Part shown: in pieces, positions 23,955 to 64,000 of the stretch | Layout: each line of letters starts with the position of its first letter | Numbering within the stretch: position 1 is the stretch's first letter | NCBI GenBank assembly: GCA_016193485.1 | Contig: JACPRZ010000043.1 | Span: forward strand, 96,944 to 160,943 | DNA length: 64,000 nt | Reading direction: 5' to 3' | Origin: Bacteroidota bacterium | GTDB taxonomy: Bacteria; Bacteroidota; Bacteroidia; JACPRZ01 | Notes under the pieces: model-generated | The model's input: only the letters and a program-made list of their open reading frames with translations | Told to the model about the DNA's origin: nothing | The model's database searches: none | Program-made: the position numbers and the translations under genes

Positions 23955-24010
23955 TGAATAGCGAAATTACGAAAATATAGGGCAGTCGGGCACAGAAGAG
24001 GGCGGAATGG

Positions 24011-24166
24011 CCTGCCTGCCGGCAGGCAAGGGCTACATTCCCATTGATCAGGTGTGAATTTTTTTGTTTTCCTGATCTGATGAAGTCCGATACTAGTCCT
24101 GACGTTTACGATCAGGATGCAGACATTTATCGTCTGCATCAGATTCATCGGACCGGCAGGCAGGGA
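24011..24166. repeat. complex palindromic region (cctgcctgccggcaggcaagg; nested insert with gatgcagacatttatcgtctgcatc; tail tcatcggaccggcaggcaggga)
   Basis: Shares gtccgatact(a/c)gtc and tcatcggaccgg(c/t)aggcaggga with 37746-37806, and the gacatttatcgtc core with 1298-1314. Confidence 0.6.
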
Positions 24167-24224
24167 TAAATGATTGCCTATGCTGCTGGAAAAAATACAA
24201 ATGTGATTACAAATGTGTTGGGGT

Positions 24225-26465: not shown

Positions 26466-27288
26466 TGATTCCTTTCATTTCGTCATCGCTAATATAATCA
26501 TCATTGCTGACCACCGTATATGCCAACATTTTTGAAAAGACAGAAAGATAGGTATGAATAAGAAAATTATTTTCGCTTGCGTCATAAGAACCGTAAGCAA
26601 TGCTCAAAAACTTTTCCCATTGCGCATAAGAAACCTGAATCTCACCGTATTTTTTTACATCCCGGAAATGGTTTGACATTTCACGATAACAATCAATGAA
26701 AATACCGCTTTGATAGCCGAATGATTCTTCAATTCTCTTGAGGGTCGCTTTTTGTTTTTCTTCTTTGAAAAGAAATCTGTCAATCCAGAAATAAAAATCG
26801 TCTGCGTTATTTTCTGACAGGGTGAAAGAAGCAGAGGCGATTTCGTTCAATTTTAATTTATCTTCCGTGAGTTCTTCCAGTATATCAATTTGTGAAATGT
26901 CGGGAGCAAAAACTTTCCAATTGATAAAGTCGGAAGCAATTAGGGTGTAGTTGTAACCTTCGCCTGAATTAACCTGGCCTAAAAGATAACCCGCCAGTTG
27001 TTCTTTGGCGTGTTTCAAAGTAAATTTCAGGTCGTTTTCAAATTCAATAATGATTTTATTATAAAGGGTGTCGGCACTACCCTTGTGCATTTTGTCCTTT
27101 CGGGGAATATTCAGGACCGTTTTTTCAGCACCGCTTGTAATTTTGTCAATTATTTTTTTTATCTCTTCTTCACCGGAATATAATCGGTTGAGCAGGTCTT
27201 TGAATAATTCTTTTTTGGCGAGTTCTTTATTGGCAGTTTTTATCTTTTGCCGGTATATTTCAATCAGTTCGTTTCTGTTTTGGTCCAT
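26383..27288 (-). CDS. N-terminal (nuclease-like) domain of the Type IIG-like enzyme, separated from the methyltransferase domain by a frameshift
   Basis: 301-aa ORF ending inside the start of 24225-26465; its tail ...NDFFFWLPGIN* joins the downstream frame ...SGYQELID by a 1-nt shift near a T6 run. Confidence 0.55.
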   Translation of the reverse strand: MDQNRNELIEIYRQKIKTANKELAKKELFKDLLNRLYSGEEEIKKIIDKITSGAEKTVLNIPRKDKMHKGSADTLYNKIIIEFENDLKFTLKHAKEQLAGYLLGQVNSGEGYNYTLIASDFINWKVFAPDISQIDILEELTEDKLKLNEIASASFTLSENNADDFYFWIDRFLFKEEKQKATLKRIEESFGYQSGIFIDCYREMSNHFRDVKKYGEIQVSYAQWEKFLSIAYGSYDASENNFLIHTYLSVFSKMLAYTVVSNDDYISDDEMKGIIDGTVFHKYNIRNFVDNDFFFWLPGIN

Positions 27289-27365
27289 TGTAAATTATCT
27301 CTTTAAAACATTGTAAAAATACCATTTATTCCTGTTTGGCGGTTGCGGGCGTAACTGCCGATGAT

Positions 27366-27446
27366 CTGGAGGGAGGTGACATTGAGGGATTTGATGTAGG
27401 GGATTGAGGGGATGAGGGAATGAGGAATTAATAACATGAGGGAATT
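27366..27446. promoter_or_regulatory. purine-rich tgaggga-type short repeats upstream of the Type IIG-like gene
   Basis: ggagggagg, ttgagggat, ttgagggga, atgagggaa, tgaggaatt, atgagggaat within 80 bp; a similar ttgagggagg and G-rich tract recurs at 29680-29840. Confidence 0.35.
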
Positions 27447-27565
27447 AAAGGATCAGAAGGGAACAAGAAAAGATATTTATTGGCATAGAGTTGGTAATTT
27501 TCGTTATGGAAAAAGAAAAGGGATAGTGGAGGATTACGATACAAAGAAAGATTAGGTAAATGGCT

Positions 27566-28282
27566 TTAGTTTGTTAACGTGTGAATCAACAATCTTGCTT
27601 CCGGAATTTCTTTATAGACATTATTAATATTATCTTCGGTTAAATATGTATTAATTGTTTTGAATAACTTACCACTTCTAAATGCTTCAGGAATGGATTC
27701 AGTATCATACACCTTTTTTTTTAATTGAGGGGTTGGGTGCAAATATCTAATATTCTCTTTTGAAATATCAAATATGCAGGATGCGACAAGTATTTCTGAA
27801 CTTGGGAATAATATTAGTGGAATGAAATATGGCAATATTTCGTAATTATAACCTTGTTTAACCATTTCTTCGTAGAATTTTTCAATTGAAAAATAAATTA
27901 ATCTATTAATACTATAAGCCCATTCAGTGAAGTAATTTGAGCGGTCTTTCAGAAGTTTTTCCGTATCAGAATTGATAATTATTATTTCTTTATTTGAAAT
28001 TGCAGAATTTACCCTTAAAGTTTTTTGGTAACAAGCATAATAAATAGCAATCAAATCTTTTAATAATTTATTGGAATCATCAGAAGTAAATGAGTAATTG
28101 GATGAATTTGAAGTGTTATGCAGATATCTTGATAAAGAATTAAAAATATTCAATTGATCCAGGTCAATAAAGCAATTATCGGGTAATTCCTCCTTCCGGT
28201 GTTTTTTAAAAATGGATTGTAAAAATTTTCGGATAACATAAAAGTCACTTAGCCCGTCACGAAGTATTGCAATATTTCGCAT
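27566..28282 (-). CDS. small partner protein of the upstream ATPase; possible RloB/TOPRIM-like effector (unassigned)
   Basis: Start 3 nt after the ATPase stop; N-terminus MRNIAILRDGLSDFYV (hydrophobic strand then D-G-x-S-D) resembles the start of RloB/DUF4276-type partners; later IIIINSDTEKLL acidic patch; AT-rich. Confidence 0.5.
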   Translation of the reverse strand: MRNIAILRDGLSDFYVIRKFLQSIFKKHRKEELPDNCFIDLDQLNIFNSLSRYLHNTSNSSNYSFTSDDSNKLLKDLIAIYYACYQKTLRVNSAISNKEIIIINSDTEKLLKDRSNYFTEWAYSINRLIYFSIEKFYEEMVKQGYNYEILPYFIPLILFPSSEILVASCIFDISKENIRYLHPTPQLKKKVYDTESIPEAFRSGKLFKTINTYLTEDNINNVYKEIPEARLLIHTLTN

Positions 28283-28285
28283 AAA

Positions 28286-29581
28286 TTAAATTTCACCTAA
28301 AACACCATTATAGAAAAGTTCAACTAAATCGAATGGTTTAATAGCAATTATTTTTTTATTATTCACTGTAATTTCCTCACCCTCAACAGTACCCATATTG
28401 ACAAGGGGTTTAATTGCGTCATTTAAGTTTGTAACAAGTGTAATAAAATCTTTTTCTTTCAAATGGAAATTATAAACGGAATCGGGCCGTTGTGAGAATT
28501 CCCGAATTACGGATGGGCTGTGGCTGGTAAAAATAAACTGTGTTTTTTTTGAATTATCAGATGTATCTCTTAACCAATTAAGAAATTCATGAAGATTTTT
28601 TTGATTTATACCATTTTCTATTTCTTCAATCATAATCAATGCGGGAGGTTTGCGAATAGAGCAAAGGAGGGCAATTGCTGCAGCTCTAACTAACCCATCA
28701 GATATTTTATCAGGGTCATAGTAAGGGAAGTTTGAACCACCCATATCAAATTGCCATTTTAAACCATTTTCCTTTAAAACGAAGTTATTGAAATTTTTAA
28801 CGAACCTTTTAAGGTAACCAATAAATCGACTAAAAGTTTCTTGATCCTGCTCTTTAATAAAACAGAGTAATTCCAGAAGGTTTCCCCCTTCCTTACCGAT
28901 TGCGCTTGGTGGATATGGAAAGACATTATTTGTTTTAAAATTACCTAAAAAATCTTTTTTATAACTCGGTACTAGTTTACCTCTAATATAGGAGCCGGAA
29001 AATGCATCTCCTTTTAAAAAGGACGGTTGAAAATTATAATAATAAAAAGTTGCAAGATCGTGGAAAAATAAATTAACTATTTCTTTTTCCCGGAAATGGT
29101 TATTAGATTCATATATTTTTTTTCTTAAAAGTAATTTGGAAGAATTTATATCAAAGCCATTTTCAAATGTTATGTTATTATCAGGAAATAAAAGGGTTAA
29201 TTTCTCGGTGCTTAAAATTAAGCGATCATCTTTTATATTAGGAAAAATTGAGAGGTTATATTCTATATTGTAATTATCTTTACTCCATATGCATCGAAAA
29301 CTAATTGGTTCACCAATTTTGCACATTGAATGTTTATTTGAATTGTATTCGTATGAACGAAGGTCAGAGAAATAATATTCATCTTGACTTTCATGATCAG
29401 TTTCATGAATTGGTTCTTTAACAGGATTATATCGACTTATCAATCTAGAAAAAAAATGCAGACCCCTAAGGAAATTACTTTTACCAGAGTTATTAGAGCC
29501 GATAATTAAAGACAAATCAATGGGTTCAATGGCAGTACATTTATGGGTTCTGTAATTTTTTAGTTCTAATAATTTAAACAT
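28286..29581 (-). CDS. ABC-type (AAA_15/AAA_21, OLD/SMC-like) ATPase, defence-associated family
   Basis: Walker A LIIGSNNSGKSN near N-terminus; D-loop/Walker B ALIMIEEIENGI; H-loop FIFTSHSP; 431 aa; AT-rich. Confidence 0.75.
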   Translation of the reverse strand: MFKLLELKNYRTHKCTAIEPIDLSLIIGSNNSGKSNFLRGLHFFSRLISRYNPVKEPIHETDHESQDEYYFSDLRSYEYNSNKHSMCKIGEPISFRCIWSKDNYNIEYNLSIFPNIKDDRLILSTEKLTLLFPDNNITFENGFDINSSKLLLRKKIYESNNHFREKEIVNLFFHDLATFYYYNFQPSFLKGDAFSGSYIRGKLVPSYKKDFLGNFKTNNVFPYPPSAIGKEGGNLLELLCFIKEQDQETFSRFIGYLKRFVKNFNNFVLKENGLKWQFDMGGSNFPYYDPDKISDGLVRAAAIALLCSIRKPPALIMIEEIENGINQKNLHEFLNWLRDTSDNSKKTQFIFTSHSPSVIREFSQRPDSVYNFHLKEKDFITLVTNLNDAIKPLVNMGTVEGEEITVNNKKIIAIKPFDLVELFYNGVLGEI

Positions 29582-29861
29582 AAGAATAATATTGAGCAGT
29601 TGTTAATTTGGCGGATTTGCAAGTTTTTTTTCGAACCATTAGCGAGCAACAAAGGTAGAAATTCTTCGGGAATGATAAGGTAGTCTTCGGGATTGGGAAT
29701 GTGAAATATTTTTGATGTTGATGTTTAGTCCTGGTCGGGACCGTTGAGGGAGGCAGCCCACCCTGCCCCTTCAAAGGGGGGGGAAGTCGCGAAGGGATGG
29801 AGATAGGCGGGTGAGGTTTGTCGGGTGGAAACACACGATTGCACAAGGGAAGCATTATTCT

Positions 29862-32800
29862 TCACTTCGCCATCTGTTCCCGTGCCGTGGCGGTCTGCAT
29901 GTAGCGTGCTTGCAGTTTTTTGAACCGTTCGTCCAAATCCTTATTGAGTTCTTCCTGCTTGTAGATTTTTGTTACGGTGGATAATCGTCCCATGATGGAC
30001 ATTGAGCGCTGCATATCTTCGGCAATATGCGCTTCATATTCCCCGCCTACCGTAAAATAATAATCAAGATCATCTTCGCATACTTCGGCAAGGCGTTTTA
30101 TGATCGGGTTTGCCTTATCGTGTTTTCCTGCGCGGTAATACGCTTCGGCAATGGGCAGAATAAGGAAGTTATAGGGGACGGTTTTTTCAGGCACCACTTC
30201 CATACATTTATCCAGCACGGCAACGGCAGAGTCCTTTTTTCCCTCCATGATCAGCGCATTGGCAAGGCGGGCGAAATTATTGCGGAAGTTCATGGTCATG
30301 CGCGAAATATTTTCATCAAGCGAAAAACCGGGATGCGTCAGGTTACCCCATTTGAATTTGTTCATCAGGTTATCGTACATGATATCGGTAGCAACCCTCC
30401 CGGTTTGTCCGTCAGGGCTTTCATTGCGGATCGGAACGAGGCGGTAGGCAAGCCCTTCCAACTGGAAATAGGGCTCTAACTGAAGATATGCTTCGGAGCC
30501 GACAGTGATGGCAAAATAAACAGGACGTTTCCATTCGTTATGCGCAATCAGGTCAAGCACCATCAGGTCATTTTTCATAAGGTAGTTCTGCCTGACGGTC
30601 CACTCTATTGAAGTAACTATTTTTCCTGTATCCTGCGGTTGCACATTTCCTCTTGTCAGCATTTTGTTCAGGGATTGTCCCGGCTTTTGCGGTTCTCCCA
30701 TCATTTGTGTTTGCACATTTTCAAGGACTTTCTTTTTATCAACAGGCAGGCGGAATGACTTGGACGGATAGTAGTTGATCAGTTTACCGCTGACGGTCTG
30801 CAGTTTCGCCTGCGGGTCATCTGATCCGATGAAACTCATCAGGTCTTTGAGGTCAACCGGACCTTTGAGTTTACGGTCATAAAAGGGTGCAAAATCACGG
30901 GTGCCCTGGCGGTATCGGTCAGGGGAAAGCGTAAACGGCACAGGGTCCGAATCATAAGCCTTCCGTCTCATCTGGTCGATGTACCAGTCAGTATTAAGCA
31001 AACTCAAATTGACCACGCGCACATCGGTTCGCACGCCCTCAACTTCCTGTACGTACCAGAGGGGGAAGGTATCGTTATCGCCATTGGTGAATAAAATCGC
31101 ATTCGGTGCGCATGATTCAAGGTAATTGGCGGCAAAGTCGCGTGCCGTGTAACGCATGGAACGGTCATGGTCATCCCAACCCTCTTTTGCCATTATAGCA
31201 GGAACCGGGCTGCAGATGATTGTTGCAATTACCGGAACCATTACCGGCACAATTTTTATTTTTGATGATATCCATTCGGCAATTGCCATCACACCGAGAC
31301 CAATCCATATTGCAAAAGCGTAAAATGATCCCACGTAAGCGTAATCACGTTCACGCGGCTGGTAGGGATACTGGTTCAGGTAAACTACAATGGCTAGCCC
31401 GGTCATAATAAAAAGAATAAGAACTACAAAGGCACCCTTGTTTTCGCTCCGGAAATGATATATGAGACCGATAAGGCCAAGTATGAGAGGAAGAAGGTAA
31501 AACCTGTTACGGGCTTTACTATTTGCTAAACTTTCAGGAAGGTTCTCCTGGGGACCTGCCTGCATTTTGTCAATAAAAGGGATACCGCATATCCAGTTGC
31601 CTTCGGTGGGTCCGCCATGGCCCTGTATGTCATTCTGCCGTCCGGCAAAATTCCACATAAAATAGCGGAAGTACATCCATCCTACCTGGTATTTGAAAAA
31701 GAATTTGAGGTTCTGGCCGGATGTGGGTTTTTTGTCTTTCGGCCCGCTTATTTCACCCCATGTTTTATATGCGCTTATATGGGAGCCCTGGTCGCTCCAC
31801 ATCCTTGGAAGGACAGTGCAATATTCAGGATCATAATTAGGGATTGAACCCTTGCGGTCGTCTGTTACAACGTATATTCCTTTTTCTTTATCGGGAGCAT
31901 AAACAGGTGAACCGTCCTTGTAGGGATCGGACGGGTCAAGCGGAGCATTAAAATGTTGCCCGTATAATAATGGACGGTCGCCATATTGTTCACGGCCGAG
32001 GTAGGCGAGCAAACTGAACATGTTCTCGGGATTATTTTCATCCATCGGGGGGTTTGAAAGGGATCGGATCACGGTCACGGCAAAGGTGGAGTACCCGATG
32101 ACAATCACTGTAAAACAAAGAATGGCTGTATTGACGACCGGGTGATTTTTTTTTCTTGACCAGTGAAGGCCCCAGATGACAAGCGCTATGAGGAGAAGGA
32201 TATAAAAAATTATTCCACTGTTAAACGGAAGCCCGAATGAATTTACGAAAAGCAATTCAAATTTGGAAGCAAGAATTATCACACCCTGGATAACACCAAC
32301 CTGGATAGTACCGAGAAGAATCATAGAGATAAGTCCCGTAATAATGATCCCGTTCCGTGTTACCGGAAATTTTTTGAAATAATAGACAAATGCAATAGCC
32401 GGGAGAGCGGTGAGGTTCAGCAGGTGCACACCCACGGAAAGTCCGCACAGGTAGGCGATGAGCACCAGCCAGCGGTCGGCATATTTTTCTTCGGCAACAT
32501 TTTCCCATTTGAGGATAGCCCAGAAGACAACTGCCGTAAAAAGCGAAGAAAGCGCATATACTTCTCCTTCCACTGCCGAGAACCAGAACGAATCGCTGAA
32601 GGTGTATGCCAGCGAACCGATAATACCGCTTCCGATGACGGAAGGAATTTTTTCGCCTGGGATCTCAGCGCCATTGCGGCTGATGATTTTTTTTGCCAGT
32701 GCGGTTATGGTCCAGAAAAGAAAGAGAATGGTAAAGGCGCTGGCAATTGCCGATAACGTATTTATGCACAGTGCAACAAGAGTTTTGTCGGCAGCAAAAA

Positions 32801-39695: not shown

Positions 39696-41339
39696 ATGAG
39701 AACATTTTTACTCCTGCAAAGGTATCGGGATATTCCTTATTCCCTGTACATTATTCCTTTTATTTTTTTCATCTTCTGTCCGTACCTTTTTTCGCAGGGT
39801 ATTTACAACAACGGTGCGTACATTGTGATCCAGACAGGCGCTTATGTTTATATTGACGGAGACGGCAGTGGCGACTACCGCAATGAAACAAGTACCTCAA
39901 ACGGCTCCATTGACCTTGACGGGGAACTCATTCTTGAGGGCGACTGGACCAATAATGCAACTGGCGGTAACGTCTTTATCAACATTGAAGGCGCTCCTGA
40001 CGGGTGGACAAGATTCAAAGGAACTACCAACCAGACCATAGGCGGGACAAGAGATACTTACTTTGAAAAATTTGAAGTTAATAATACGGCTGCGGGAACA
40101 TCGGTTACCCTGAACCGTGATGTCAATGTCTTTGGCTCCTGCGCCATGACAGACGGAGTGATATCCACAGGAGCAAATTATTTCATTCTGAGAAGTACAA
40201 CCGCAGCAGATCTCTCCGGTTTCAGCAGCGGCAGTTTTGTATATGGAAACCTGAGGCGCTATATTGCTTCCAACACCAGCACTTATGATTTTCCGGTGGG
40301 CAGCAATAATGCTTCAACAAATTATTACCGCAGTGATTTTATCAACGGTAACCTGACCGGTGTATCTTACCTTACCGCTTCGGTCGGCATCCTGGCGGAA
40401 GGAGGTAATAATGTGGATGCAAGAGTTATCAGCAATCCTAATGCTTTTGAGGGTGGGCAGCAATACCAGAATGTTGTAGGCCCGGCTGCCGGCCAGGCGA
40501 CAGAATGGACTTTTATTCCTGATGCCCCAGTCGGAACCGGCAACTATAACTTGAACCTTTATGTAGCCAATATTAGCGAACTATCGGCAGCAGATGATGA
40601 TAAATTCAATATTTTAAAACGACCTGACGGGTCATCGGATTATAACGACTGGGATGCCCTGGATGCAACCACATCCATACCGGCCAATGGCGGTGCCGGC
40701 AGAATATACAGCGCAGGTGCCGGTTATGCGCAGAAGAACGGCTTTACCTCATTCTCCAAATTCGTCATTGCCAAGGCGGACAATCCGCTTCCCGTTGAAT
40801 TACTCTATTTTTCCGGAGTATGCGAGGGGGGGGTGGTAAAATTATCATGGGCGACTGCATCCGAAACAAATTCGGATTATTTTACGGTTGAGAAAAGTGA
40901 AGACGGCATTACTTTCCGGCCCATTGGAGAAATTCCGGCACAGGGAAACAGCCATTCAGTGGTTTTATATAATTATTCAGATGCTGTATTGCCTGAAAAC
41001 GTATCGTATTACATCCTGAAACAAACCGACATTGACGGTAAAACCGAACAATTTGCAACCATAGCGGTTGATGCTTGCGCTGAAACAACCACTGGCGATG
41101 AAATCAATGCCTGGTCCGCTGGTGACGGATTTATCGTGATACGGATTATTAAAAATTCTGGCGGTGAAGAAAATTACCCTGTCACCCTTTTTGATATGGT
41201 TGCAAGGGAGGTCTTATCCGCTGCCATTCATGTTGATGAAGGCGCAAATCATGCGGTGCTTAACACCGGAAATCTTGCACCTGCCTTGTATATTCTCAAT
41301 GTCAATAATTCATATAAACGGAAGTTGGCGCTTTATTAA
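39696..41339 (+). CDS. secreted repeat protein sharing a beta-sandwich module with the 47324-51808 adhesin; divergent T9SS-like C-terminus
   Basis: Signal/anchor; segment PLPVELLYFSGVCEGGVVKLSWATASETNSDYFTVEKS...YYILKQTDIDGK is paralogous to 51210-51540 of the giant adhesin. Confidence 0.6.
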   Translation: MRTFLLLQRYRDIPYSLYIIPFIFFIFCPYLFSQGIYNNGAYIVIQTGAYVYIDGDGSGDYRNETSTSNGSIDLDGELILEGDWTNNATGGNVFINIEGAPDGWTRFKGTTNQTIGGTRDTYFEKFEVNNTAAGTSVTLNRDVNVFGSCAMTDGVISTGANYFILRSTTAADLSGFSSGSFVYGNLRRYIASNTSTYDFPVGSNNASTNYYRSDFINGNLTGVSYLTASVGILAEGGNNVDARVISNPNAFEGGQQYQNVVGPAAGQATEWTFIPDAPVGTGNYNLNLYVANISELSAADDDKFNILKRPDGSSDYNDWDALDATTSIPANGGAGRIYSAGAGYAQKNGFTSFSKFVIAKADNPLPVELLYFSGVCEGGVVKLSWATASETNSDYFTVEKSEDGITFRPIGEIPAQGNSHSVVLYNYSDAVLPENVSYYILKQTDIDGKTEQFATIAVDACAETTTGDEINAWSAGDGFIVIRIIKNSGGEENYPVTLFDMVAREVLSAAIHVDEGANHAVLNTGNLAPALYILNVNNSYKRKLALY

Positions 41340-47323: not shown

Positions 47324-50300
47324 ATGAGGCGATATTTACTTTTTTGTTTATCTGTTCTCAGCACATTTTTGCCCCGTTTTGTATTGGCGCAGGCGGATAA
47401 TTGCAATACCCCCGCCACTACATTAACAGTTTATCCTGCTGTTTGCACTCCTTATTCCGGTTCTACTACTGGCGCAACACCTTCTTCGGGCCCTGCCTCT
47501 ACTTGCGGAAGCACTGATGACGATGTTTGGTTCAGGTACACTACTGCAGCCGGAAGCAGTTACGCATTTTTATATGTTGATCCTGCAAGTTCCGGTTTTG
47601 ATCCTGCTTTCCAGGCATTATCAGGCGCTTGTGGCTCTCAGGCAGTTCAGGCATGTGTTGACGCCTATGCCGGAGGCCAGGGTGAATCAGTAACATTAAC
47701 CGGATTAAGCGGAAGCACTACTTATTATATCCGTGTTTTCAGTTATGGTTCCGGCAGCGGAACAGACGGCTCTTTTACCGCGTGTGTTTTCAATGGAGCG
47801 CCTCCTGCCAATGATGTTTGCGGAGTTGCTACATCAGTTACTCTTACACAAAACGCTACTTGCTCGCCTACAGCCGGAACAACTGCCTGGGCGACTACTT
47901 CTGCAGGCATTCCCGCATGTGTGGGTACTGCCGATGATGATGTTTGGTATAAATTTACCACAGGTGCAGGAGTTACTTATGAAAGAATTGTGGTAGACCC
48001 AACCGGAAGTGGCGGAGCCGATTTAGAGTTTGACCCTGTAGTTCAGGTATTTTCCGGAACATGTGGCGCCTTTGTCAGCATTGCCTGCCAGAATGCAGTT
48101 GGTGCCGGTGGGACTGAAGATTTTTTTGTTAGCGGATTAACAGGCAGTACCACTTATTATGTCAGAGTTTATCACTATGGCTCATGGTATGCGAATAGAA
48201 CCGATGGAGGAAGTTTTGATATTTGTGTGATGGGCGGTTCTCCTCCTGCCAATGATAATTGTGCAGGCGCTCTGGCTCTTCCAACTAATCCCGGTTGTGT
48301 TGTTTTTGGAGGTTCTTCTACCACAACTTTTGCAACACAATCCTCTACGGGTACTCCTTGTTCCGGCTATAGCATTGATGACGATGTATGGTACAGTTTT
48401 GTGGCTATTAATTATACCCATACTCTTACGGTTGACCCAAATTCTGCAATGAATGTGCAGATTCAGGTGTTATCTGGCGCCTGCGGTTCTATTCTCTCTG
48501 AACAATGCCAGGATAATGCAGGGATAGATGGTACCGAAACAATGGTAGTGACCGGATTGACCATCGGCAATACTTATTATGTGAGAATAAGCCATAATGG
48601 AACTTTTTATGGCAGCAATGGTTCTTTTACTATTTGCAATGTGGCGAGCGCTCCCGTTGGAGGTGACGACCTTTGCAATGCAGTTGCATTACCGGCAGTA
48701 ACCTCTGCCTGCACTTATGGAACTTATGATAATTCTTCTATGCCCACCGGCTCAGGCGCGCTACCTGCAGGATGCAGCGAAAGGGCTAATGGATTCAGGA
48801 GACACATGTGGTTTAAGTTTGTTGTTCCAACCGGTGGAAAAGTCAGCATAAATGTAAAAGGTCTTACCGGGAATATTACAAACCCCACTGTGGCCGCTTT
48901 CTCATGGAATGGAGGGGCCTGTGGCACCCTTACTAATTTTACATTACTTTCCTGCAATAATGATTTTTGCAATGTTAATGGGGATTGTAATTACCATTCC
49001 GTACTGAATTTATCCGGATTATCGGTAGGGGCGACCACCTATTTCAAAGTATCTTCCGCTTCAACAGATAATGGAGCCGGAACATTTAAAATATGTGTTT
49101 CAGCGCCACTCAATGACGGTTGTCCTGCACCTCTTTTTGTTTGTGATTTAAATGGTTTTGAAGGCACCACCAGCGCAGGTTATACAATTGATAATGGAGG
49201 TCTTGAAGGATGGAGCGGAGGACCCTATGGTACGGGAGGAACAACCATTGAAAATAATTCATGGCTGCAATTTGAGGCATCTGATGTGAATGCATCCATT
49301 ACAATTACGGTATCTGATTGTTATTTGGATGATGGTGGTGCCGGGGAATATCAATATAATTGTTGTGGCGGTCCAGCCGGTTTTAACGGTGGAGGGCTTC
49401 AGGCGCAAATACTTGCCATGAATGGCGGAAATTGTTCGGGTTCTGCGGGATGGACTGCTATGTCTGTATTTCTAAATGGCATCAATGGTCCTAATTTCGG
49501 ATTAAACGGAACTTATACTGTTACCAACACCTCTGCTCTGACTGTTGGTCAGATTTACTATATTATGTTTGACGGCTTTGCAGGCGATGTTTGTAATTAC
49601 AAAATCAATGCGGCTACAGGTGTCGGCACTACTGTTATTGTAACCCCCCCGAGCAGCACCACTAATATCTGCAGCGGCAGTACGGCTACATTGGCAATTA
49701 ATCCGGTTGGTTCGGGAGGTACGGTAAACTGGAGTTCCTCTCCTTCCGGGTATGTATGCAATAATTGCGGTTCATCAGTGGTTGTTGACCCTGCTGCTTC
49801 TCCTGGCGTTACGGATGGTACAGTAACTTATTATGCTACGGTATCCGGCAATTGCATCACACCGCAAACAGTATCGGCAACTGTGAATGTAGAGCCAACT
49901 CCACCCACTCCAACGGTTGTTGCCGATCCACCCGGTTTTTGCGGGGTTACCAGCGTTTCCATGACCGCCTCTGCTGCCAACGCTACCGATTACGAATGGT
50001 TTGATGCCCTTGTCGGAGGCAATTCATTAGATGTTGGTCCGGTCTTCACTCCGGCAATAACAGATAATCAAATCGGTTCCTATACCGTTTATGTTGCTGC
50101 ATATAACACATCAGGTTCTCCCACTTGTACCACAGTAACGCGAGCCACGAAAACAGTAACCATTAATGCCTGGGATGGAAAAATAAAGTGGACAGGAAAT
50201 GCCCCTGCTGCTACTCCCAACTGGACAAATACTCTTAATTGGGCAGGTTGCACTCCGGGTTGCGCTGATGCCGTTGGTGTAATTATTCCTGACCAAACCA

Positions 50301-51808
50301 CGGTTCCCGGTCCGAATGACTGGCCTGTTATCAGCAGCAGCGTGACCACCGACAGTTTAAAATTAGAACCAAACGGAAAACTGGAATTCATTGGAGGCGC
50401 ATTGAGCATCTGCGGTTCATTCGGACACTTTGGAATAATAACTATTTCAGGTGGTGTGCCGACAATCACTTTTAACGGTACGACAAAACAATTTTATATA
50501 AAAACATCTACCGGCACGGGTGATTTACCTAATGTTGTTATCAACAATGCAGCGGGAGTCAGAGTAGTGGATGGTGCAGGTAATAAGGATATGGATATTG
50601 GAACCGCATACATTTTAACTTTAACAAATGGGATTTTAACTTCCACAAACACCCGGACGGTAAATGTTAAAAACAGCGCTGTTGGCGCAGTTACCGGATT
50701 CGGAACATCTTCTTATGTTGCAGGTCGCCTACAAAGGGCTATTACGGGAGGATTTCCAAAATCTTATGATTTTCCTGTTGGGACTTCCAGCGGTTACGAG
50801 TTGATGAATATTAATTTTACGGCAGGCACCACCATTACAAGCGCAACCGTCTATTTTGAGAAACCATCAAACGCACTGGGCACGGGACTAAGTGCCCTAT
50901 CCGAAGGCGGTGCATCTTTTATTACTACCGTTCCCGGTATTGTCGATGCAGGGGGTGGCACAAACGGAGGATTATGGACGGTATTGGCAAGCGGAGGAGT
51001 TGCCAATTATGATATGACTTTGTATGGCAGAATATATTCTAATGCAGGCGGATTTACCCACACCATTGTAAAAAGGGACCCGTTTTGCCCAGGCAACTGG
51101 ACCCTGTCGGGAACTTATGGCGGCAGTTCGGTTGGCGGAGGAATCATTACCGTAACACGAACCGGAATGAACGGCTTTTCGCAGTTTGGCATTGGCAGGC
51201 ACGATGCGGTATTTCCTATATCCCTGTTATTCTTTAATGCCGTATGCACGAGCAGGGGAATTGAATTATCATGGATAACCGCCAGTGAAATCAATAACGA
51301 TTATTTTACAATTGAAAGAGCAGCCCCCTCCCAACTTCCCCCATCAGGGGAGGGGATGAATTGGACTGTTATCGGAACAGTTAAGGGAGCAGGCAATAGT
51401 TCTACGATTCGCAAATATGAATTTACCGATCCCCTCCCCGATAGGGAGGGTAATGGAGGGGCTTTCTATTATCGCCTTAAACAAACCGACTTTGACGGTA
51501 CCCATGAGTACTTTGATGCCGTACCTGCCGATTGCAATTCGGAAAATGAATTCAAGGTCATTAACATAATACCTAACCCGGCCAAAGACAATATTTACAT
51601 CCTCTTTAGTTCAGGGAAGAAACTCACCGATGTGACAATTGTATTATTTGACGTGCTGGGTAATTATGTGATTAAAGAAAAATTTTTACCTATTGAGGGC
51701 TTTAACAGCAGGGAGGTTGACTTAAGTTTCCTGAATAACGGGGTGTACGTAGTGAATGTAAATAACGGAACAACCAATTTTATTCAGAGAATAGTGAGAC
51801 AGGATTAA
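47324..51808 (+). CDS. giant secreted repeat protein (adhesin-like) with T9SS type A C-terminal sorting domain
   Basis: Signal peptide; about four N-terminal repeats with PPAND(N/V)C...DDDVW(Y/F)...TYY(I/V)RV; C-terminus KVINIIPNPAKDNIYILF...GVYVVNVNNGTTNFIQRIV is a T9SS tail. Confidence 0.8.
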   Translation: MRRYLLFCLSVLSTFLPRFVLAQADNCNTPATTLTVYPAVCTPYSGSTTGATPSSGPASTCGSTDDDVWFRYTTAAGSSYAFLYVDPASSGFDPAFQALSGACGSQAVQACVDAYAGGQGESVTLTGLSGSTTYYIRVFSYGSGSGTDGSFTACVFNGAPPANDVCGVATSVTLTQNATCSPTAGTTAWATTSAGIPACVGTADDDVWYKFTTGAGVTYERIVVDPTGSGGADLEFDPVVQVFSGTCGAFVSIACQNAVGAGGTEDFFVSGLTGSTTYYVRVYHYGSWYANRTDGGSFDICVMGGSPPANDNCAGALALPTNPGCVVFGGSSTTTFATQSSTGTPCSGYSIDDDVWYSFVAINYTHTLTVDPNSAMNVQIQVLSGACGSILSEQCQDNAGIDGTETMVVTGLTIGNTYYVRISHNGTFYGSNGSFTICNVASAPVGGDDLCNAVALPAVTSACTYGTYDNSSMPTGSGALPAGCSERANGFRRHMWFKFVVPTGGKVSINVKGLTGNITNPTVAAFSWNGGACGTLTNFTLLSCNNDFCNVNGDCNYHSVLNLSGLSVGATTYFKVSSASTDNGAGTFKICVSAPLNDGCPAPLFVCDLNGFEGTTSAGYTIDNGGLEGWSGGPYGTGGTTIENNSWLQFEASDVNASITITVSDCYLDDGGAGEYQYNCCGGPAGFNGGGLQAQILAMNGGNCSGSAGWTAMSVFLNGINGPNFGLNGTYTVTNTSALTVGQIYYIMFDGFAGDVCNYKINAATGVGTTVIVTPPSSTTNICSGSTATLAINPVGSGGTVNWSSSPSGYVCNNCGSSVVVDPAASPGVTDGTVTYYATVSGNCITPQTVSATVNVEPTPPTPTVVADPPGFCGVTSVSMTASAANATDYEWFDALVGGNSLDVGPVFTPAITDNQIGSYTVYVAAYNTSGSPTCTTVTRATKTVTINAWDGKIKWTGNAPAATPNWTNTLNWAGCTPGCADAVGVIIPDQTTVPGPNDWPVISSSVTTDSLKLEPNGKLEFIGGALSICGSFGHFGIITISGGVPTITFNGTTKQFYIKTSTGTGDLPNVVINNAAGVRVVDGAGNKDMDIGTAYILTLTNGILTSTNTRTVNVKNSAVGAVTGFGTSSYVAGRLQRAITGGFPKSYDFPVGTSSGYELMNINFTAGTTITSATVYFEKPSNALGTGLSALSEGGASFITTVPGIVDAGGGTNGGLWTVLASGGVANYDMTLYGRIYSNAGGFTHTIVKRDPFCPGNWTLSGTYGGSSVGGGIITVTRTGMNGFSQFGIGRHDAVFPISLLFFNAVCTSRGIELSWITASEINNDYFTIERAAPSQLPPSGEGMNWTVIGTVKGAGNSSTIRKYEFTDPLPDREGNGGAFYYRLKQTDFDGTHEYFDAVPADCNSENEFKVINIIPNPAKDNIYILFSSGKKLTDVTIVLFDVLGNYVIKEKFLPIEGFNSREVDLSFLNNGVYVVNVNNGTTNFIQRIVRQD
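51321..51465 (+). repeat. two GC-rich palindromic mini-insertions lying in-frame inside the adhesin gene
   Basis: ccccctcccaacttcccccatcaggggagggg (51321-51354) and cccctccccgatagggagggtaatggagggg (51429-51465) encode extra residues (APSQLPPSGEGM; PDREGNGGAF) absent from the paralogous module in 39696-41339. Confidence 0.5.
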
Positions 51809-59265: not shown

Positions 59266-60005
59266 TGATTGATTTAACCGGAAAAAATATTTTGATAACC
59301 GGTGCATCGTCCGGTATTGGAAGGGAAACGGCTATTCTGGCCGGTAACCTTGGTGCCGTGGTAACGGTGACGGGGAGAAATAAGAACCGCCTGGATGAGA
59401 CATTTCAGCGGCTTAAAGGGAAAAATAACCTGCAGTTTGTTGCCGATTTATCGGAAGAAAAAAATATCGTTGAACTTACCGGGCATCTTCCGGAATTTGA
59501 CGGGATTGTTCATTGTGCCGGAATAACCAGTCCGATGCCGGTAAAATTCATCAGGGAAAAGCATTTGCAGGAAGTTTTTAAAATAAATTATTTCGCGTCT
59601 GTTTTACTGACCGGATCTCTTTTGAGCAAAGGGAAAATCAAAAATGCTTCTTCCATTATCTTTGTATCATCCGTATCCACTCAACTGCCTTATTTCGGGG
59701 GAACAGCATACATTGCTTCAAAAGCGGCAACCGAATCCTATTGTAAGACATTGGCTTTTGAATTGGCCCCGCAAAAAATAAGGGTGAATTGCATTTCACC
59801 GGGATTGGTAAGGACCGCAGTATATGAAGAGATGAGAACCGGTTACGGAGACGAAAAAATGGAGGAATACGAAAAAAAATACCCGCTCGGGTTTGGCAAA
59901 CCGGCTGATGTTGCCAATGCCGTTGTTTTTTTACTTTCGGATGCTTCCGGTTGGATTACCGGCACCATAATCAATCTTGACGGAGGATTATTACTTGGCA
60001 GATGA
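59265..60005 (+). CDS. SDR-family oxidoreductase (ketoreductase-like)
   Basis: Rossmann motif ILITGASSGIGRE; catalytic YIASKAA (YxxxK); 1-nt overlap with the upstream gene. Confidence 0.85.
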   Translation: MIDLTGKNILITGASSGIGRETAILAGNLGAVVTVTGRNKNRLDETFQRLKGKNNLQFVADLSEEKNIVELTGHLPEFDGIVHCAGITSPMPVKFIREKHLQEVFKINYFASVLLTGSLLSKGKIKNASSIIFVSSVSTQLPYFGGTAYIASKAATESYCKTLAFELAPQKIRVNCISPGLVRTAVYEEMRTGYGDEKMEEYEKKYPLGFGKPADVANAVVFLLSDASGWITGTIINLDGGLLLGR

Positions 60006-60922
60006 AACCCGCAGCGTATTCCATTATCATTCCCGTTTATAATGGCGGAAAATTTTTGCCTGAACTTTTCCATCGGTTACTGACCATATGCAAAAATTAT
60101 GAAAAAACCGAAATAATTTTTGTGGATGACGGAAGTTATGATGACAGTTGGAAGGTAATTGAGAAAATCAAGGAAGAAAACAGCGATTTGGTTACCGGAA
60201 TAAAACTCTCCAGAAATTTCGGACAGCATAACGCCACTATGTGCGGGTTTTACCATTGCACCGGTGATTTTATTATTACCATTGATGATGACCTTGAGAT
60301 GCTGCCGGAAGATATTCCTCTTCTCATTGAAAAGCAAAAAGAGAATAATGCCGATCTGACTTATGGCATCAATGATAATTTTTCACACATTTCGCTTCGC
60401 GGGCTGCTTACCGCCACCTACAAACGTGCATCCTTACTGGAGGGGAGGTACAGGGGGAAAGGATCAGGTTTCCGGCTTTTAAAAAAATCTCTTGTTGAAA
60501 ACATTAAGAACAATACGGGGAATTTTGTTTTTATTGATGAATTTTGCATGTGGTACACTTCCAATATTGATTATGTAAATGTTCAATCTTCTTTTTCAGG
60601 AAAAAAGAAAAGTTCGGGTTACACCCTGGCTAAATTATCCGCGCTTACAAGAAAATTAATTGTCATATCCACTGTTATTCCCCTGAGAGTAATTACTAAT
60701 CTCGGCTTGATTGTGGCTGTAATAAATTTATTGCTGGGAATGAGAATTATCATTAAAAAACTCTTTTTCAACGTTCCCCTCGGGTACACTTCTATTATTG
60801 TGGGCATCTTATTTTCCACCGGGTTAATTATGTTCAGCATCGGTATTTTGGGAGAATACCTTGGCATTGTCGTTCGCTCCGTTACAAAAATGCCGCCATT
60901 CAATATTGATAAAAAAATATGA
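60002..60922 (+). CDS. GT2-family polyprenyl-phosphate glycosyltransferase (GtrB/ArnC/DPM1-like)
   Basis: YSIIIPVYNGG...IIFVDDGSYDDS...ITIDDDLE (GT-A DxD fold) with two C-terminal TM helices. Confidence 0.8.
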   Translation: MKPAAYSIIIPVYNGGKFLPELFHRLLTICKNYEKTEIIFVDDGSYDDSWKVIEKIKEENSDLVTGIKLSRNFGQHNATMCGFYHCTGDFIITIDDDLEMLPEDIPLLIEKQKENNADLTYGINDNFSHISLRGLLTATYKRASLLEGRYRGKGSGFRLLKKSLVENIKNNTGNFVFIDEFCMWYTSNIDYVNVQSSFSGKKKSSGYTLAKLSALTRKLIVISTVIPLRVITNLGLIVAVINLLLGMRIIIKKLFFNVPLGYTSIIVGILFSTGLIMFSIGILGEYLGIVVRSVTKMPPFNIDKKI

Positions 60923-61527
60923 AACTGGAACAGTACGGAATAACCCTTTCAAGAATTACATCCGATGATATTGAATTGGTGAGAAACATGAGAAATGCAC
61001 CGCACGTCAGAAGCACAATGGCTTACCGGAGGTATATTACGAAATCAATGCAAAAAAAGTGGTTTGAACGTGTAAATAATCCGCTGAATTATTATTTGCT
61101 CATCTCGTATCGGAATGAAAAAATCGGAGTTATCAACATTAAAAATATCCGCTTGGATGAAAAATGGGGCGAAGGAGGTATTTTTATTCATGAAAAAAAT
61201 TACTGGAACACTCCTGTTCCGGTGTTGGCTTCACTGTGCCTGCTGAATTTTATTTTTTTTCAGTTAAAAATAACCGATAAATCATTCATAAAAATTTTAA
61301 AAGATAATTTGCCTTCCATCCGTTACAATAAAATACTTGGCTATGTTTTGGTCCCTTATCAGGAAAAAAAGAAGAATCAGCTCTATGTGCTCACTAAAGA
61401 TGCGTACATTGAAAAAACCGAAAAACTCCGTAAAGCCGCAACCATCTTTTCTGGTGATACTGAATTACCGAGATTAACCGGGGTAAAAAGTCCGTTGAAT
61501 CTTGAACAAATGAACATCATGCTTTAA
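60919..61527 (+). CDS. GNAT-like N-acetyltransferase (PseH-like), tentative
   Basis: LSRITSDDIELVRNMRNAPHVRSTM...WFERVNNPLNYYLLISYRNEKIGVINIKNI resembles the PseH/sugar N-acetyltransferase pattern; 4-nt overlap with the GT2 gene. Confidence 0.45.
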   Translation: MKLEQYGITLSRITSDDIELVRNMRNAPHVRSTMAYRRYITKSMQKKWFERVNNPLNYYLLISYRNEKIGVINIKNIRLDEKWGEGGIFIHEKNYWNTPVPVLASLCLLNFIFFQLKITDKSFIKILKDNLPSIRYNKILGYVLVPYQEKKKNQLYVLTKDAYIEKTEKLRKAATIFSGDTELPRLTGVKSPLNLEQMNIML

Positions 61528-61576
61528 AAATATCCTGACGTTCTACCCCTGGGGTATTTATTCACAAGTATAAATA

Positions 61577-62809
61577 TTACTTAAGCACATCTGCCAAACA
61601 CACAGGAATAAGTTTATTATCTTTTATTGTTACGTCAGGACAATTTAAACAATATTCAATTTCGCCATCATAAGTAACATTTGGCCCTTGCTGAAAGATC
61701 ATCGTTTTAAAATTCAGTGTAGAACCTGGTTTTAACAAGTTGGACAGAAATAATATTGTCTTCATTATTGTTAAAGGATTTAAACTGAACAATGCATACA
61801 ACAAACACTTGTAAAATATTTTTTTCTTGTTCCAGATAATATCAAAAGGATACTTTCCCGTTTTTTTTATATGCAACTGATTTCCAACTTTTGCAATATG
61901 TTTAAAATCAATATTCGTATGCAATAGTTTTGTTTTGCAATTTTTTAATTGGATAACAAATGTTAAATAAAATATCCATCTTTTCTCGGATATATTTTTA
62001 GTTGATGGGATATAACCATATGGTAATAAATTAAACTGATGATTTAAATATGCAATAACTTCTTCATTCAAAACAACTTCATTGTCTAAAATTGTAGGTA
62101 CAAGCCGGTTAGGCAGGATTGAGGATTTCGGGATATTGTTTGCAATTAATTCAAAATCCGTACAGCAGGTAACCAATAATGATTGATGCATTTTATTGTT
62201 AAAGAAGCAAGAAATAAATTCGCTAAAATTCGCCAAATCGCTTTTATACAAAGTTATTTCAAGTGCACACCGTATTCCGTTTTTAATAATCTTGTTTGAT
62301 ATATTTGTGCGTAATTCTATCAGATCCTTTCTGTCGAAATTTTCTTTCAAATCCGGTCTTTTTTGGTGCTCATCAATATGAAGAAAAATCTTATTTATTT
62401 TTGATTTTTTATACTCGGCAAGCTTTTTATCAGTTAATGCAAAACCGTTACTTAATACATCAACCAAAATCCCTTTATTTGAAATATATTTAATGACTTC
62501 TGATAATTCCGGGTGTAAAGTGGGTTCTCCGCCAGCAAGTGTTATCAAATGTAAATTTCTCTTTGTTATAATAAAATCAATTTCATTTTTGATGATTTCC
62601 AGAGGTTTTGTATAGTCAGATTGGTCTTTGTAACATGCTTTACAGGAGATATTGCATTTTTGATTTACTTCAATTACGGCATGAGGAATATTTTTCCCGC
62701 TAAATGGCATTTTATAGAGTTTATTTACTGCCACTGTATTTTTAATCTTAGGATTCATAATTATACAATAATAAAACAAACTTATTAATAACTTTATGAC
62801 ATAGGTCAT
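61577..62809 (-). CDS. radical SAM protein with Cys-rich C-terminal (SPASM/twitch-like) region
   Basis: CNISCKACY (CxxxCxxC) followed by a GGEP-type motif (LAGGEPTLHP); C-terminal cysteines (VTCC, EYCLNCPD...PVC); AT-rich. Confidence 0.7.
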   Translation of the reverse strand: MTYVIKLLISLFYYCIIMNPKIKNTVAVNKLYKMPFSGKNIPHAVIEVNQKCNISCKACYKDQSDYTKPLEIIKNEIDFIITKRNLHLITLAGGEPTLHPELSEVIKYISNKGILVDVLSNGFALTDKKLAEYKKSKINKIFLHIDEHQKRPDLKENFDRKDLIELRTNISNKIIKNGIRCALEITLYKSDLANFSEFISCFFNNKMHQSLLVTCCTDFELIANNIPKSSILPNRLVPTILDNEVVLNEEVIAYLNHQFNLLPYGYIPSTKNISEKRWIFYLTFVIQLKNCKTKLLHTNIDFKHIAKVGNQLHIKKTGKYPFDIIWNKKKIFYKCLLYALFSLNPLTIMKTILFLSNLLKPGSTLNFKTMIFQQGPNVTYDGEIEYCLNCPDVTIKDNKLIPVCLADVLK

Positions 62810-62893
62810 GTATTTTGAGTGCCTTTTTATTGAATTTTGGTTTTAAGTAAAATTTGTAGTAAACATTCATATTTTTGGGGGTAACTATATACA

Positions 62894-63343
62894 ATGGACG
62901 ACAATACTTTTAATACTGGAATTTACTTAGCTGAGAAAAGCTTTCAGAATATTTATAAAAAGCATAATTATTTTATGGAAAAGTATTTTAACCATTCCAT
63001 ACCAAAAAAAGGATTATCCACAGGGTTCATTCCATATAATATTGATTTTTCTAAATTAGCGCAACGGAATATTATTTTGACCGGGGATGCCGCTGGCCTT
63101 TGCGATAAAATGTTTGGTCATGGAGTTGATAATGCCATAATATCCGGATATCTTGCCATTGAAAGTATTTGTAATGCTGAAAATACAAATAACACATACC
63201 CGCTTAATGAAATTTACCGTTATAAATTAGGAAAGTATCTTAATAAATCACTTTCTTACGCTATAAAAACCTACGAAACTTTAAAGGAAAATAAAGTAAA
63301 TTATTTGGATTCATTGGAAGCGCTTATAAAACCAGGTGTCTAA
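62894..63343 (+). CDS. truncated FAD-dependent oxidoreductase (geranylgeranyl reductase/halogenase-like C-terminal fragment)
   Basis: IILTGDAAGLCDKMFGHGVDNAIISGYLA is the second FAD-binding motif of this family, but the N-terminal Rossmann part is missing (only 149 aa). Confidence 0.4.
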   Translation: MDDNTFNTGIYLAEKSFQNIYKKHNYFMEKYFNHSIPKKGLSTGFIPYNIDFSKLAQRNIILTGDAAGLCDKMFGHGVDNAIISGYLAIESICNAENTNNTYPLNEIYRYKLGKYLNKSLSYAIKTYETLKENKVNYLDSLEALIKPGV

Positions 63344-63354
63344 TTTGTTCTACT

Positions 63355-64000
63355 ATGAAATTTGCAGATCAATTTGATACAATTTTTTATTCTTCAAAAG
63401 TTAATGAAAATGTCAGGTTGATATTAAACGAGGGTTCTGCCCATGACTTATTTATCAACTATTTTGGAGTTAATTATAATGAAACAGACATTGTTTCGGT
63501 TAAGTTATATTTTTCTTTTTTTGAAAGACCATCCGAAAATATTTTAAGTGAATTTGGCATAAATGAAAAGCACAGAGGGCTTATCTTTACTAACTGGATG
63601 CCTTCAAAAAGGTATGATTTTATCCACCAGGGATTAACCCTTGGGTTAAAATGTTACCTTAAAAATAATGAGATAATAATTAATAAATACATCCATTTTA
63701 GAACAACAGAATTTGCATTAGGGTTTCCGGATGAAATAAAATTACTAAAGGAAGATAGAAACTGCCCCGGCATTTGCCTTGAATTTCATGAGGAGGTAAC
63801 CGAAGTAAAAAAATACTATTATATTACCTCTGCTGAAAATAAATCAAAAATCATTAAAAATTTTGGAATAGAAGCAATTGTTAAACATAACGATATAAGC
63901 ATGATAGAATACACAGAAAGCGAATTAGGGAGAAAAATAAACCTGGCGGTTAACAGGGCGGATACTGTTAAAACTATTTTAATGAAAGAAAATAATAAAT
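63355..64000 (+). CDS. hypothetical protein, 3' end beyond window
   Basis: Open frame from ATG at 63355 to the window end (215 codons, no stop); AT-rich; no motif recognised. Confidence 0.4.
   Translation, partial: MKFADQFDTIFYSSKVNENVRLILNEGSAHDLFINYFGVNYNETDIVSVKLYFSFFERPSENILSEFGINEKHRGLIFTNWMPSKRYDFIHQGLTLGLKCYLKNNEIIINKYIHFRTTEFALGFPDEIKLLKEDRNCPGICLEFHEEVTEVKKYYYITSAENKSKIIKNFGIEAIVKHNDISMIEYTESELGRKINLAVNRADTVKTILMKENNK

Follow-up and report, generated by a model that had tools for sequence, protein, structure and literature searches.

Probable in-frame insertion of two triplex-type DNA repeats into adjacent loops of a Bacteroidota secretion-system cargo gene

How does a gene come to carry, within one short domain, two segments far richer in G and C than the sequence around them? 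The question is raised by a gene at positions 47324..51808 (plus strand) of a 64,000-nt stretch of Bacteroidota DNA (contig JACPRZ010000043.1, positions 96,944 to 160,943), which we call the window. The gene, defined by the open reading frame (ORF) list and its translation, which is a 100% match to protein P0001, encodes a 1494-aa cargo protein of the type IX secretion system (T9SS). Segment 1, ccccctcccaacttcccccatcaggggagggg, lies at 51324-51355 and encodes APSQLPPSGEG. Segment 2, cccctccccgatagggagggtaatggagggg, lies at 51431-51461 and encodes PLPDREGNGGA. Their GC contents are 0.72 (72%) and 0.68 (68%), compared with 0.457 (45.7%) for the gene, 0.397 (39.7%) for the surrounding module minus both elements, and 0.42 for the window. 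Both segments lie within the ORF 47324-51808, and the reading frame is unbroken. We consider it quite probable that they are two oppositely oriented copies of a G/C-rich, three-block, triplex-type repeat, inserted in frame at the DNA level.

Three-block symmetry and the loops that carry it

A sequence-only reading of this locus described the segments as hairpin-forming palindromes. Their arms are indeed complementary. The hairpin, however, is unexceptional: each element folds as DNA at about -8 kcal/mol, with z between -0.5 and -1.4, values ordinary for the base composition (the folding models hairpins only). The significant property of the elements is their three-block symmetry. Specifically, a pyrimidine block, Y, is joined by a purine block, R, that is the reverse complement of Y, and by a second purine block, R', that is the mirror of R. 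The second G-run, earlier taken for an alternative hairpin arm, is instead this mirror-repeat “third strand.” Element 1 (loop 1; 51325..51353) has its G-rich strand on the minus strand and reads CCTCCCC-tgatg-GGGGAAG-ttg-GGAGGGG, that is, 7 triads with 1 mismatch and loops of 5 and 3. Its plus-strand blocks are R' at 51325-51331, a loop at 51332-51334, R at 51335-51341, a loop at 51342-51346, and Y at 51347-51353. Element 2 (loop 2; 51432..51460), G-rich on the plus strand, reads CCCTCCC-cgata-GGGAGGG-taa-TGGAGGG, again with 7 triads and 1 mismatch; an alternative parse, CCTCCC-cgata-GGGAGG-gtaat-GGAGGG at 51433-51460, is perfect, with 6 triads and loops of 5 and 5. The two elements, each about 30 nt (29-32 nt), are oppositely oriented, and the codon phase of the motif differs between them.

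This arrangement is that of the intrastrand triplex motif, earlier named BoxC or PIT, whose Escherichia coli form is called TMECO (Holder et al. 2015, PMC4666352). We scanned the window after the published rules, under which triads may be G.G:C, A.A:T or T.A:T, stems measure 6-15 nt with no more than 1 mismatch, and loops measure 1-6 nt. One match has at least 6 perfect triads (element 2), and dinucleotide shuffles lead one to expect 0.035 per window. Exactly two matches, elements 1 and 2, have 7 triads and at most 1 mismatch, with none in 150 shuffles. Exact CCCCTCCC/GGGAGGGG 8-mers occur three times in the window, all at the element locus, and CCCTCCC N3-30 GGGAGGG occurs twice, both at that locus, with 0 occurrences in 100 shuffles. 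Judged by sequence, the elements are of the BoxC/PIT/TMECO class (class II purine motif). An Rfam search returns only PhotoRC-I, at 11.5 bits (gathering score 45; E 2.4), with no curated family matched at the elements, and a terminator/promoter scan finds no terminator-like site there.

A second symmetry spans both elements. A repeat search reveals a perfect 11-nt inverted repeat, with its left arm, GGGGAGGGGAT, at 51347..51357 and its right arm, ATCCCCTCCCC, at 51429..51439 (both on the plus strand), 71 nt apart. The repeat could mark an intragenic invertible segment, in which a recombinase would flip the 93 nt from 51347 to 51439 and thereby produce an alternative 31-residue stretch. The inverted 93 nt amount to exactly 31 codons and stay open (GEGIGKFIFANRRTIACSLNCSDNSPIHPLP), and folding of the entire 145 nt gives z = -3.15. 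We keep this explanation as a rival of very low probability. By our estimate, chance alone supplies about one 11-nt inverted repeat, with arms no more than 100 nt apart, per 64 kb; the repeat here is simply the inner ends of elements 1 and 2 as two opposed repeats, and a flip would replace two core beta-strands, including the invariant GAGNS.

Where in the protein do the elements lie? Pfam assigns GBD_T9SS_assoc, Ig_7, and Por_Secre_tail domains to the 1494-aa host protein. Por_Secre_tail, the T9SS C-terminal sorting domain, occupies aa 1415-1491 (51566..51796, plus strand). Ahead of it sits an Ig/Fn3-like beta-sandwich module (W.TASEINNDYFTIER ... YYRLKQTDFDG; 51221..51540, plus strand), outlined by a 125-module alignment and an AlphaFold2 (AF2) model, and this module harbors both elements. 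The gene had been labeled an adhesin. A secreted T9SS cargo it is, but Pfam, which reports only the three domains above, does not support the adhesin part of that label.

The sequence-only reading had also held that two GC-rich in-frame segments are extra relative to a paralogue, and it proposed alignment as the check. The alignment confirms both extensions, in place and at 72% and 68% GC compared with 40% for the module. Specifically, both segments are missing from the paralogous module in gene 39696-41339 (comparison copy at 40848..41040, plus strand) and from P0002, the sole full-length orthologue found (52% identity), and neither extension is present in 113 of the 125 aligned homologous modules. 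A triplex motif scan of the paralogous module (40848-41040) found none. Loop 1 has 14 aa in the window, whereas P0002 has 8 and the family consensus (S.DG..) has 6; loop 2 has 12 aa, compared with 8 in P0002 and 8 in the consensus (..P..G..). In the AF2 model of residues 1300-1494 (mean predicted confidence, pLDDT, 91.4), the extras are non-strand segments 35-47 and 71-81 (model numbering), and both fall in the lowest-confidence blocks. The strand order of the model puts both loops at the same end of the beta-sandwich.

Some homologous modules do carry motifs in these loops (retrieved loci are given L numbers). In L002 (protein P0121), two insertions match those of the window gene in both site and orientation. 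Its loop 1 (minus strand) reads CCTCCCC-ttg-GGGGAGG-ttg-GGAGGGG and its loop 2 CCCTTCCC-ttt-GGGAAGGG-tcg-GGGATGGG, both perfect motifs. Similarly perfect are the loop-2 motifs of L003, CCCCTCTCC-cttg-GGAGAGGGG-ttg-GGGGTGAGG, and of L125, CCCCCTC-tgcag-GAGGGGG-gca-GGGGGAG. Stems differ between the metagenomic modules, and each intact sequence obeys the same three-block rule. Loop 2 thus displays several subfamilies: the TMECO type in L003 and L004, the CCCTTCCC type in L002, the CCCCCTC type in L125, and the CCCTCCC type in the window. In every case the G-strand of the loop-2 motif is the coding strand, and the motif occupies one fixed point, between the conserved P and G. Because the window gene and L002 share sites and orientations, their insertions were most likely inherited from a common ancestor and would be older than the split of the two genes. 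For loop 2 at large, we favor recurrent insertion, into a site that is permissive and perhaps microhomologous (CCN CTN TCN ... GGN), over one old insertion whose symmetry was kept, because each subfamily also occurs elsewhere beside genes for DUF559 proteins, which are considered below.

Two of these loci show further features. The L004 loop-2 motif (gene 265-843) is interrupted, at the codons for DESPLSFGAHQPVLSEVEGGVRYY, by a 29-nt insertion, CGCATCAGCCTGTCCTGAGCGAAGTCGAA (peptide HQPVLSEVE), which resembles a different small repeat nested within the loop-2 repeat. In the 592-nt L002 contig, positions 1-45 are an apparent Illumina adapter remnant, and the first codons are probably not biological; VTGVQTCALPI, at the start of the called L002 protein, is presumably an Illumina adapter-derived peptide.

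A dispersed repeat family read in several frames

Element 1 matches a dispersed family, T1, of the form CCTCCCCC-loop-GGGGGAGG-TTG-GGAGGGGG, along a stretch of about 30 nt that takes in the second loop (TTG) and the flanks. The pattern CCTCCCAACNTCCCCC N1-6 GGGGAGG matches the window and L002, along with 12 viral stretches and at least 120 reference-genome stretches. Among the genome matches listed, T1 is present in Prevotellaceae, Bacteroidaceae, Chitinophagales, Ferruginibacter, Mangrovibacterium, Draconibacterium, Devosia, Geobacter, Chloroflexota, and Deinococcus. The parse CCTCCCC+-loop-G+GGGAGG-TTG-GGAGGG+ fits 135 of 139 T1 copies. Among the 139, 129 show CCC at the three positions 5' of the pattern, which had been left free; the mirror rule predicts this. 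The single N within the pattern is C in all copies but one (138/139). The window has T at that position, which is its one broken triad. By these comparisons, element 1 is a slightly decayed T1 copy, with one broken triad and an enlarged loop. For element 2, the one counterpart seen is a near twin, CCTCCC-taccg-GGGAGG-gttaa-GGTGGG at L305 2266-2293.

Other subfamilies are likewise dispersed. The TMECO-type palindrome CCCCTCTCCC N2-4 GGGAGAGGGG is found in at least 120 viral stretches, with the third block GGGGTGAGGG in most copies. The L003 loop-2 element, whose blocks fit the published TMECO consensus (PMC4666352), aligns along 37 nt with an E. coli intergenic site at 89.5% identity, and 3687 of 5426 genomes of that species contain a match to it. 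The loose pattern CCCCTCCC N3-20 GGGAGGGG, with at least 120 matches across the collection, is little informative. Some viral contigs (L015, L075, L149, and L154) contain 3-4 copies of the CCCCTCCC...GGGAGGGG or TMECO type within a few kilobases.

T1 copies also exist in frame in other Bacteroidota genes (loci L259, L283, L299, L325, L371, L274, and L362). CTP synthase carries one at 147-157, inside the Pfam domain CTP_synth_N (21-303), and PriA carries one at 405-415, inside DEAD (258-432). Leucyl-tRNA synthetase (LeuRS), with two copies, and ApbE carry the repeat as well, and in each case the Pfam domain spans the insert. In ORFs with a DsbD_TM, B12-binding, or FAD-oxidase_C domain, the in-frame copy lies outside the matched domain stretch. 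Often the in-frame copy is followed by a short spacer and then by a second, oppositely oriented motif. Among loci of less than 55% GC, 8 of the 29 assessable copies are found 100 or more codons into an open frame, compared with 44% of random positions in the same loci. T1 repeats somewhat avoid coding sequence, yet they are clearly tolerated there.

Could the extra loop sequence have arisen on the spot? Template switching or fold-back copying could have produced an inverted duplication of neighboring CCC/GGG codons together with a short direct duplication, with no dispersed element involved. This idea was attractive at first: the arms coincide with conserved residues (P and G in loop 2, ..P..G..; DG in loop 1), the net gain at the loops is only 12-24 nt, which is below one whole 30-nt element, the window holds no other copies, and near-symmetric blocks make a mirror repeat equivalent to a direct repeat. 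We dropped it once complete elements surfaced in unrelated genomes and genes, and we now regard a local origin as improbable. Specifically, the match of element 1 to a cross-phylum family extends over about 30 nt, TTG loop and flanks included, E. coli has intergenic copies almost identical to the L003 loop-2 element, loop-2 subfamilies recur beside DUF559 genes, and the same element occurs in unrelated genes.

Could selection on the protein instead have shaped the loops? On this account, Pro-rich and then Gly-rich loops were selected for binding or flexibility, and the use of CCN and GGN codons made the DNA symmetric incidentally. The two loops do share one end of the beta-sandwich, loops of surface proteins often vary, and P and G codons are mutually reverse complementary. 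The DNA argues otherwise. Between the window and L002, element 1 shows about 88% DNA identity, compared with 62-73% for the flanking module, and 1-nt and 2-nt indels shift the frame, so that PSQLPPS in the window corresponds to PPNLPQ in L002. Because the DNA is kept despite these indels, the constraint or the origin lies at the DNA level and not at the peptide level. The two window elements stand in different codon phases, T1 DNA in other genes is read in three frames (PLPTSPKGEE, PSQPPPxGGG, and PPNLPRRGRG), and codons leave the mirror third block unexplained, with 0 of 150 shuffles yielding such motifs. We judge a protein-level adaptation very improbable.

We therefore return to insertion at the DNA level. 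On this view, each element would have entered a permissive surface loop through an event acting on the DNA and displaced some of the loop's earlier codons. Made up almost wholly of runs of C and of G, the repeats are unlikely to bring in stop codons; both elements are read through here, and T1 copies in other genes are read in three or more frames. The encoded peptides are linker-like, first of Pro/Ser/Leu and then of Gly/Glu/Arg, and of a kind that a loop tolerates. We regard the elements as passengers, either selfish or neutral DNA, rather than protein adaptations, and DUF559 (Vsr-like) nuclease genes may take part in their spread.

Several points weigh against this interpretation. No further copies were found in the 64-kb window by exact 8-mers, pyrimidine/purine hairpins, or triplex scans, and the source metagenome-assembled genome (MAG) is not among the matches listed in the reference-genome T1 scan. 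The stems, of 6-7 triads, are in a size range that, taken alone, Holder et al. deem noise-prone (PMC4666352). TMECO forms a triplex in vitro (circular dichroism, CD, and nuclear magnetic resonance, NMR), with none detectable in vivo (PMC4666352). The C-rich and G-rich parts of the motifs coincide with conserved loop Pro and Gly codons, so the elements could be partly of host origin. The relatives L126 and L127 possess a long loop 2 without a GC-rich motif; thus, loop length alone is no proof of insertion. Finally, the loop-2 motifs of different modules may represent one old insertion kept symmetric instead of independent insertions.

DUF559 genes beside the repeats

Triplex-type repeats bracket DUF559 genes in L365 (3997-4455), L305 (2658-3150), L280 (958-1520), and L380-L398. 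In L365, a Bacteroidota locus, the motif-bracketed DUF559 domain lies in frame within an acetyl-CoA synthetase, where it splits the AMP-binding region ahead of AMP-binding_C. Similarly, the motif-bracketed domain in L305, also from Bacteroidota, lies in frame and splits Polysacc_synt_C; to one side of it T1 stands in three tandem copies. The tandem T1 array at L305 3056-3150, three copies with a 33-nt period (SPLPTSPSRGV x3), is itself within an open frame. Loci fetched via motif patterns contain 6 DUF559-like ORFs, 5 of them no more than 500 nt from a pattern match, and all five that were examined (5/5) have flanking triplex motifs. An unbiased test used 19 metagenome loci fetched by DUF559 protein similarity alone. 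There, 11 of the 19 have a GC-rich motif with 6 or more triads, all perfect, within about 50 nt, and motifs occur within 175 nt on both sides in 8 of the 19. In 5 of those 8, the upstream G-strand is minus and the downstream G-strand is plus. In E. coli K-12, TMECO no. 9 lies 167 nt downstream of ycjD (annotated DUF559; L379, NC_000913 1351204-1351760). The loop-2 motif subfamilies of different modules are each also seen flanking DUF559 genes. DUF559 genes are tightly flanked by triplex motifs.

Short T1-spacer-T2 units without DUF559 exist in frame in homologues of pyrG, apbE, dsbD, and leuS. The window pair has the same polarity as the DUF559-flanking motifs, the 78 nt between its members are genuine domain sequence (GAGNS and neighbors), and no DUF559-like ORF was found in the 64-kb window. 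Our working hypothesis is that DUF559 mobilizes the repeats, as the bracketing suggests. A more speculative proposal, which we hold possible but put forward only tentatively, is that triplex-motif repeats are the ends or solitary remnants of a mobile unit consisting of a C-strand motif, a DUF559 Vsr-like nuclease gene, and a G-strand motif, able to insert in frame. The unit would be intact in the acetyl-CoA synthetase and polysaccharide-synthesis genes, the pyrG, apbE, dsbD, and leuS homologues would hold motif-spacer-motif remnants, and the window pair would be relics in two adjacent loops. If so, the mobile unit would address the origin of BoxC/PIT, open since the 1990s. To our knowledge, no activity is known for motif-flanked DUF559 proteins.

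What is already known is that BoxC/PIT/TMECO repeats are abundant, strikingly conserved, and published as intergenic, their function and spread being unexplained. What is new is the same repeat class in frame within Bacteroidota genes, including essential enzymes. In the open-access literature, we found no prior description of the element peptides or DNA strings, of in-frame palindromic repeats in Bacteroidetes, or of a link between the motif and DUF559. If our interpretation is right, small structured repeats remodel protein loops outside Rickettsia too, and different lineages acquired different repeat subfamilies in a single permissive loop of a T9SS-cargo domain that is very common. The DUF559 bracketing offers a concrete candidate enzyme behind the repeats. 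Such inserts would also inflate loop lengths and, in annotations and alignments, give rise to spurious “low-complexity” peptides of Pro and Gly.

Two features of base composition in the window stand apart from the elements. G or C runs of exactly 8 nt number 8, compared with 2.1 expected (maximum 5 in 100 shuffles); they lie at 14121, 20197, 20828, 29776, 35175, 40826, 53759, and 56381, and no run exceeds 8 nt. At least three of the eight lie inside listed ORFs, including the one in the paralogous module (40826-40833). The stretches 24001-30000 (0.34-0.35) and 60001-64000 (0.30-0.35) are markedly low in G+C relative to the window mean of 0.42.

Comparison with known repeat families

The closest known relatives are the intrastrand triplex motifs, which are reported from more than 260 genomes, are always intergenic in E. 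coli K-12, and are often paired in opposite orientation (PMC4666352). The TMECO consensus is CCCTCNCCC N3-6 GGGNGAGGG N3 GGGNGAGGG, and the function and mode of spread of the motifs are undescribed (PMC4666352). We found no Bacteroidota examples in that report (PMC4666352). Analogous to BoxC/PIT/TMECO, the window elements display the architecture of Y, loop, R, 3-nt loop, and mirror R, a length of about 30-37 nt, a G/C-rich composition with a single A/T marker position, conservation across distant taxa, and an inverted-orientation pair. Unlike TMECO, their stems are 7 nt (CCTCCCC/GGGGAAG/GGAGGGG and CCCTCCC/GGGAGGG/TGGAGGG, not CCCTCNCCC) and partly decayed, and they reside in frame within coding sequence, whereas the E. 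coli copies are intergenic. Given these other stems and this location, we do not regard the window elements as TMECO in the strict sense; the homologous L003 site does carry a TMECO-type copy.

Rickettsia palindromic elements (RPEs) are simple palindromes of 100-150 bp, restricted to Rickettsia and inserted in frame in genes. They were reportedly described by Ogata et al. in 2000. The sequence-only reading likened the window segments to them, and part of the likeness survives: the window elements are small and structured, they lie in frame at positions the fold tolerates, and identity is at the DNA rather than the peptide level. The window elements themselves are not RPEs: they measure about 30 nt, consist of three blocks, are unrelated in sequence, and have families in several phyla. 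With a length of 29-32 nt and a Bacteroidota host, in-frame insertion is the sole property they have in common with RPEs, and we rejected membership.

Repetitive extragenic palindromic (REP) sequences and bacterial interspersed mosaic elements (BIMEs) are imperfect palindromes of 20-40 nt with a conserved tetranucleotide head. They are extragenic and occur in many copies, and a minority flank a REP-associated tyrosine transposase (RAYT) gene, which encodes an IS200/IS605-like tyrosine (HUH) enzyme. Here too the repeats are short and structured, and triplex motifs flank DUF559 genes as REPs flank RAYT genes. In contrast, DUF559 is a PD-(D/E)XK (Vsr-like) nuclease, not a tyrosine (HUH) transposase, and the window elements are three-block and inside coding sequence. 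We rejected REP/RAYT membership on the basis of the three-block motifs in coding sequence and of the associated gene, which elsewhere is DUF559 (no search was aimed at RAYT genes).

Finally, cyanobacterial small dispersed repeats and yeast mitochondrial GC clusters are tiny, GC-rich, structured repeats that can nest and that occur in coding regions. They differ from the window elements in sequence, host, and symmetry, as they are without the triplex-type third block. What the two groups share is a very small size, a GC-rich structured make-up, a place inside coding regions, and nesting, of which the second insertion in L004 is a case.

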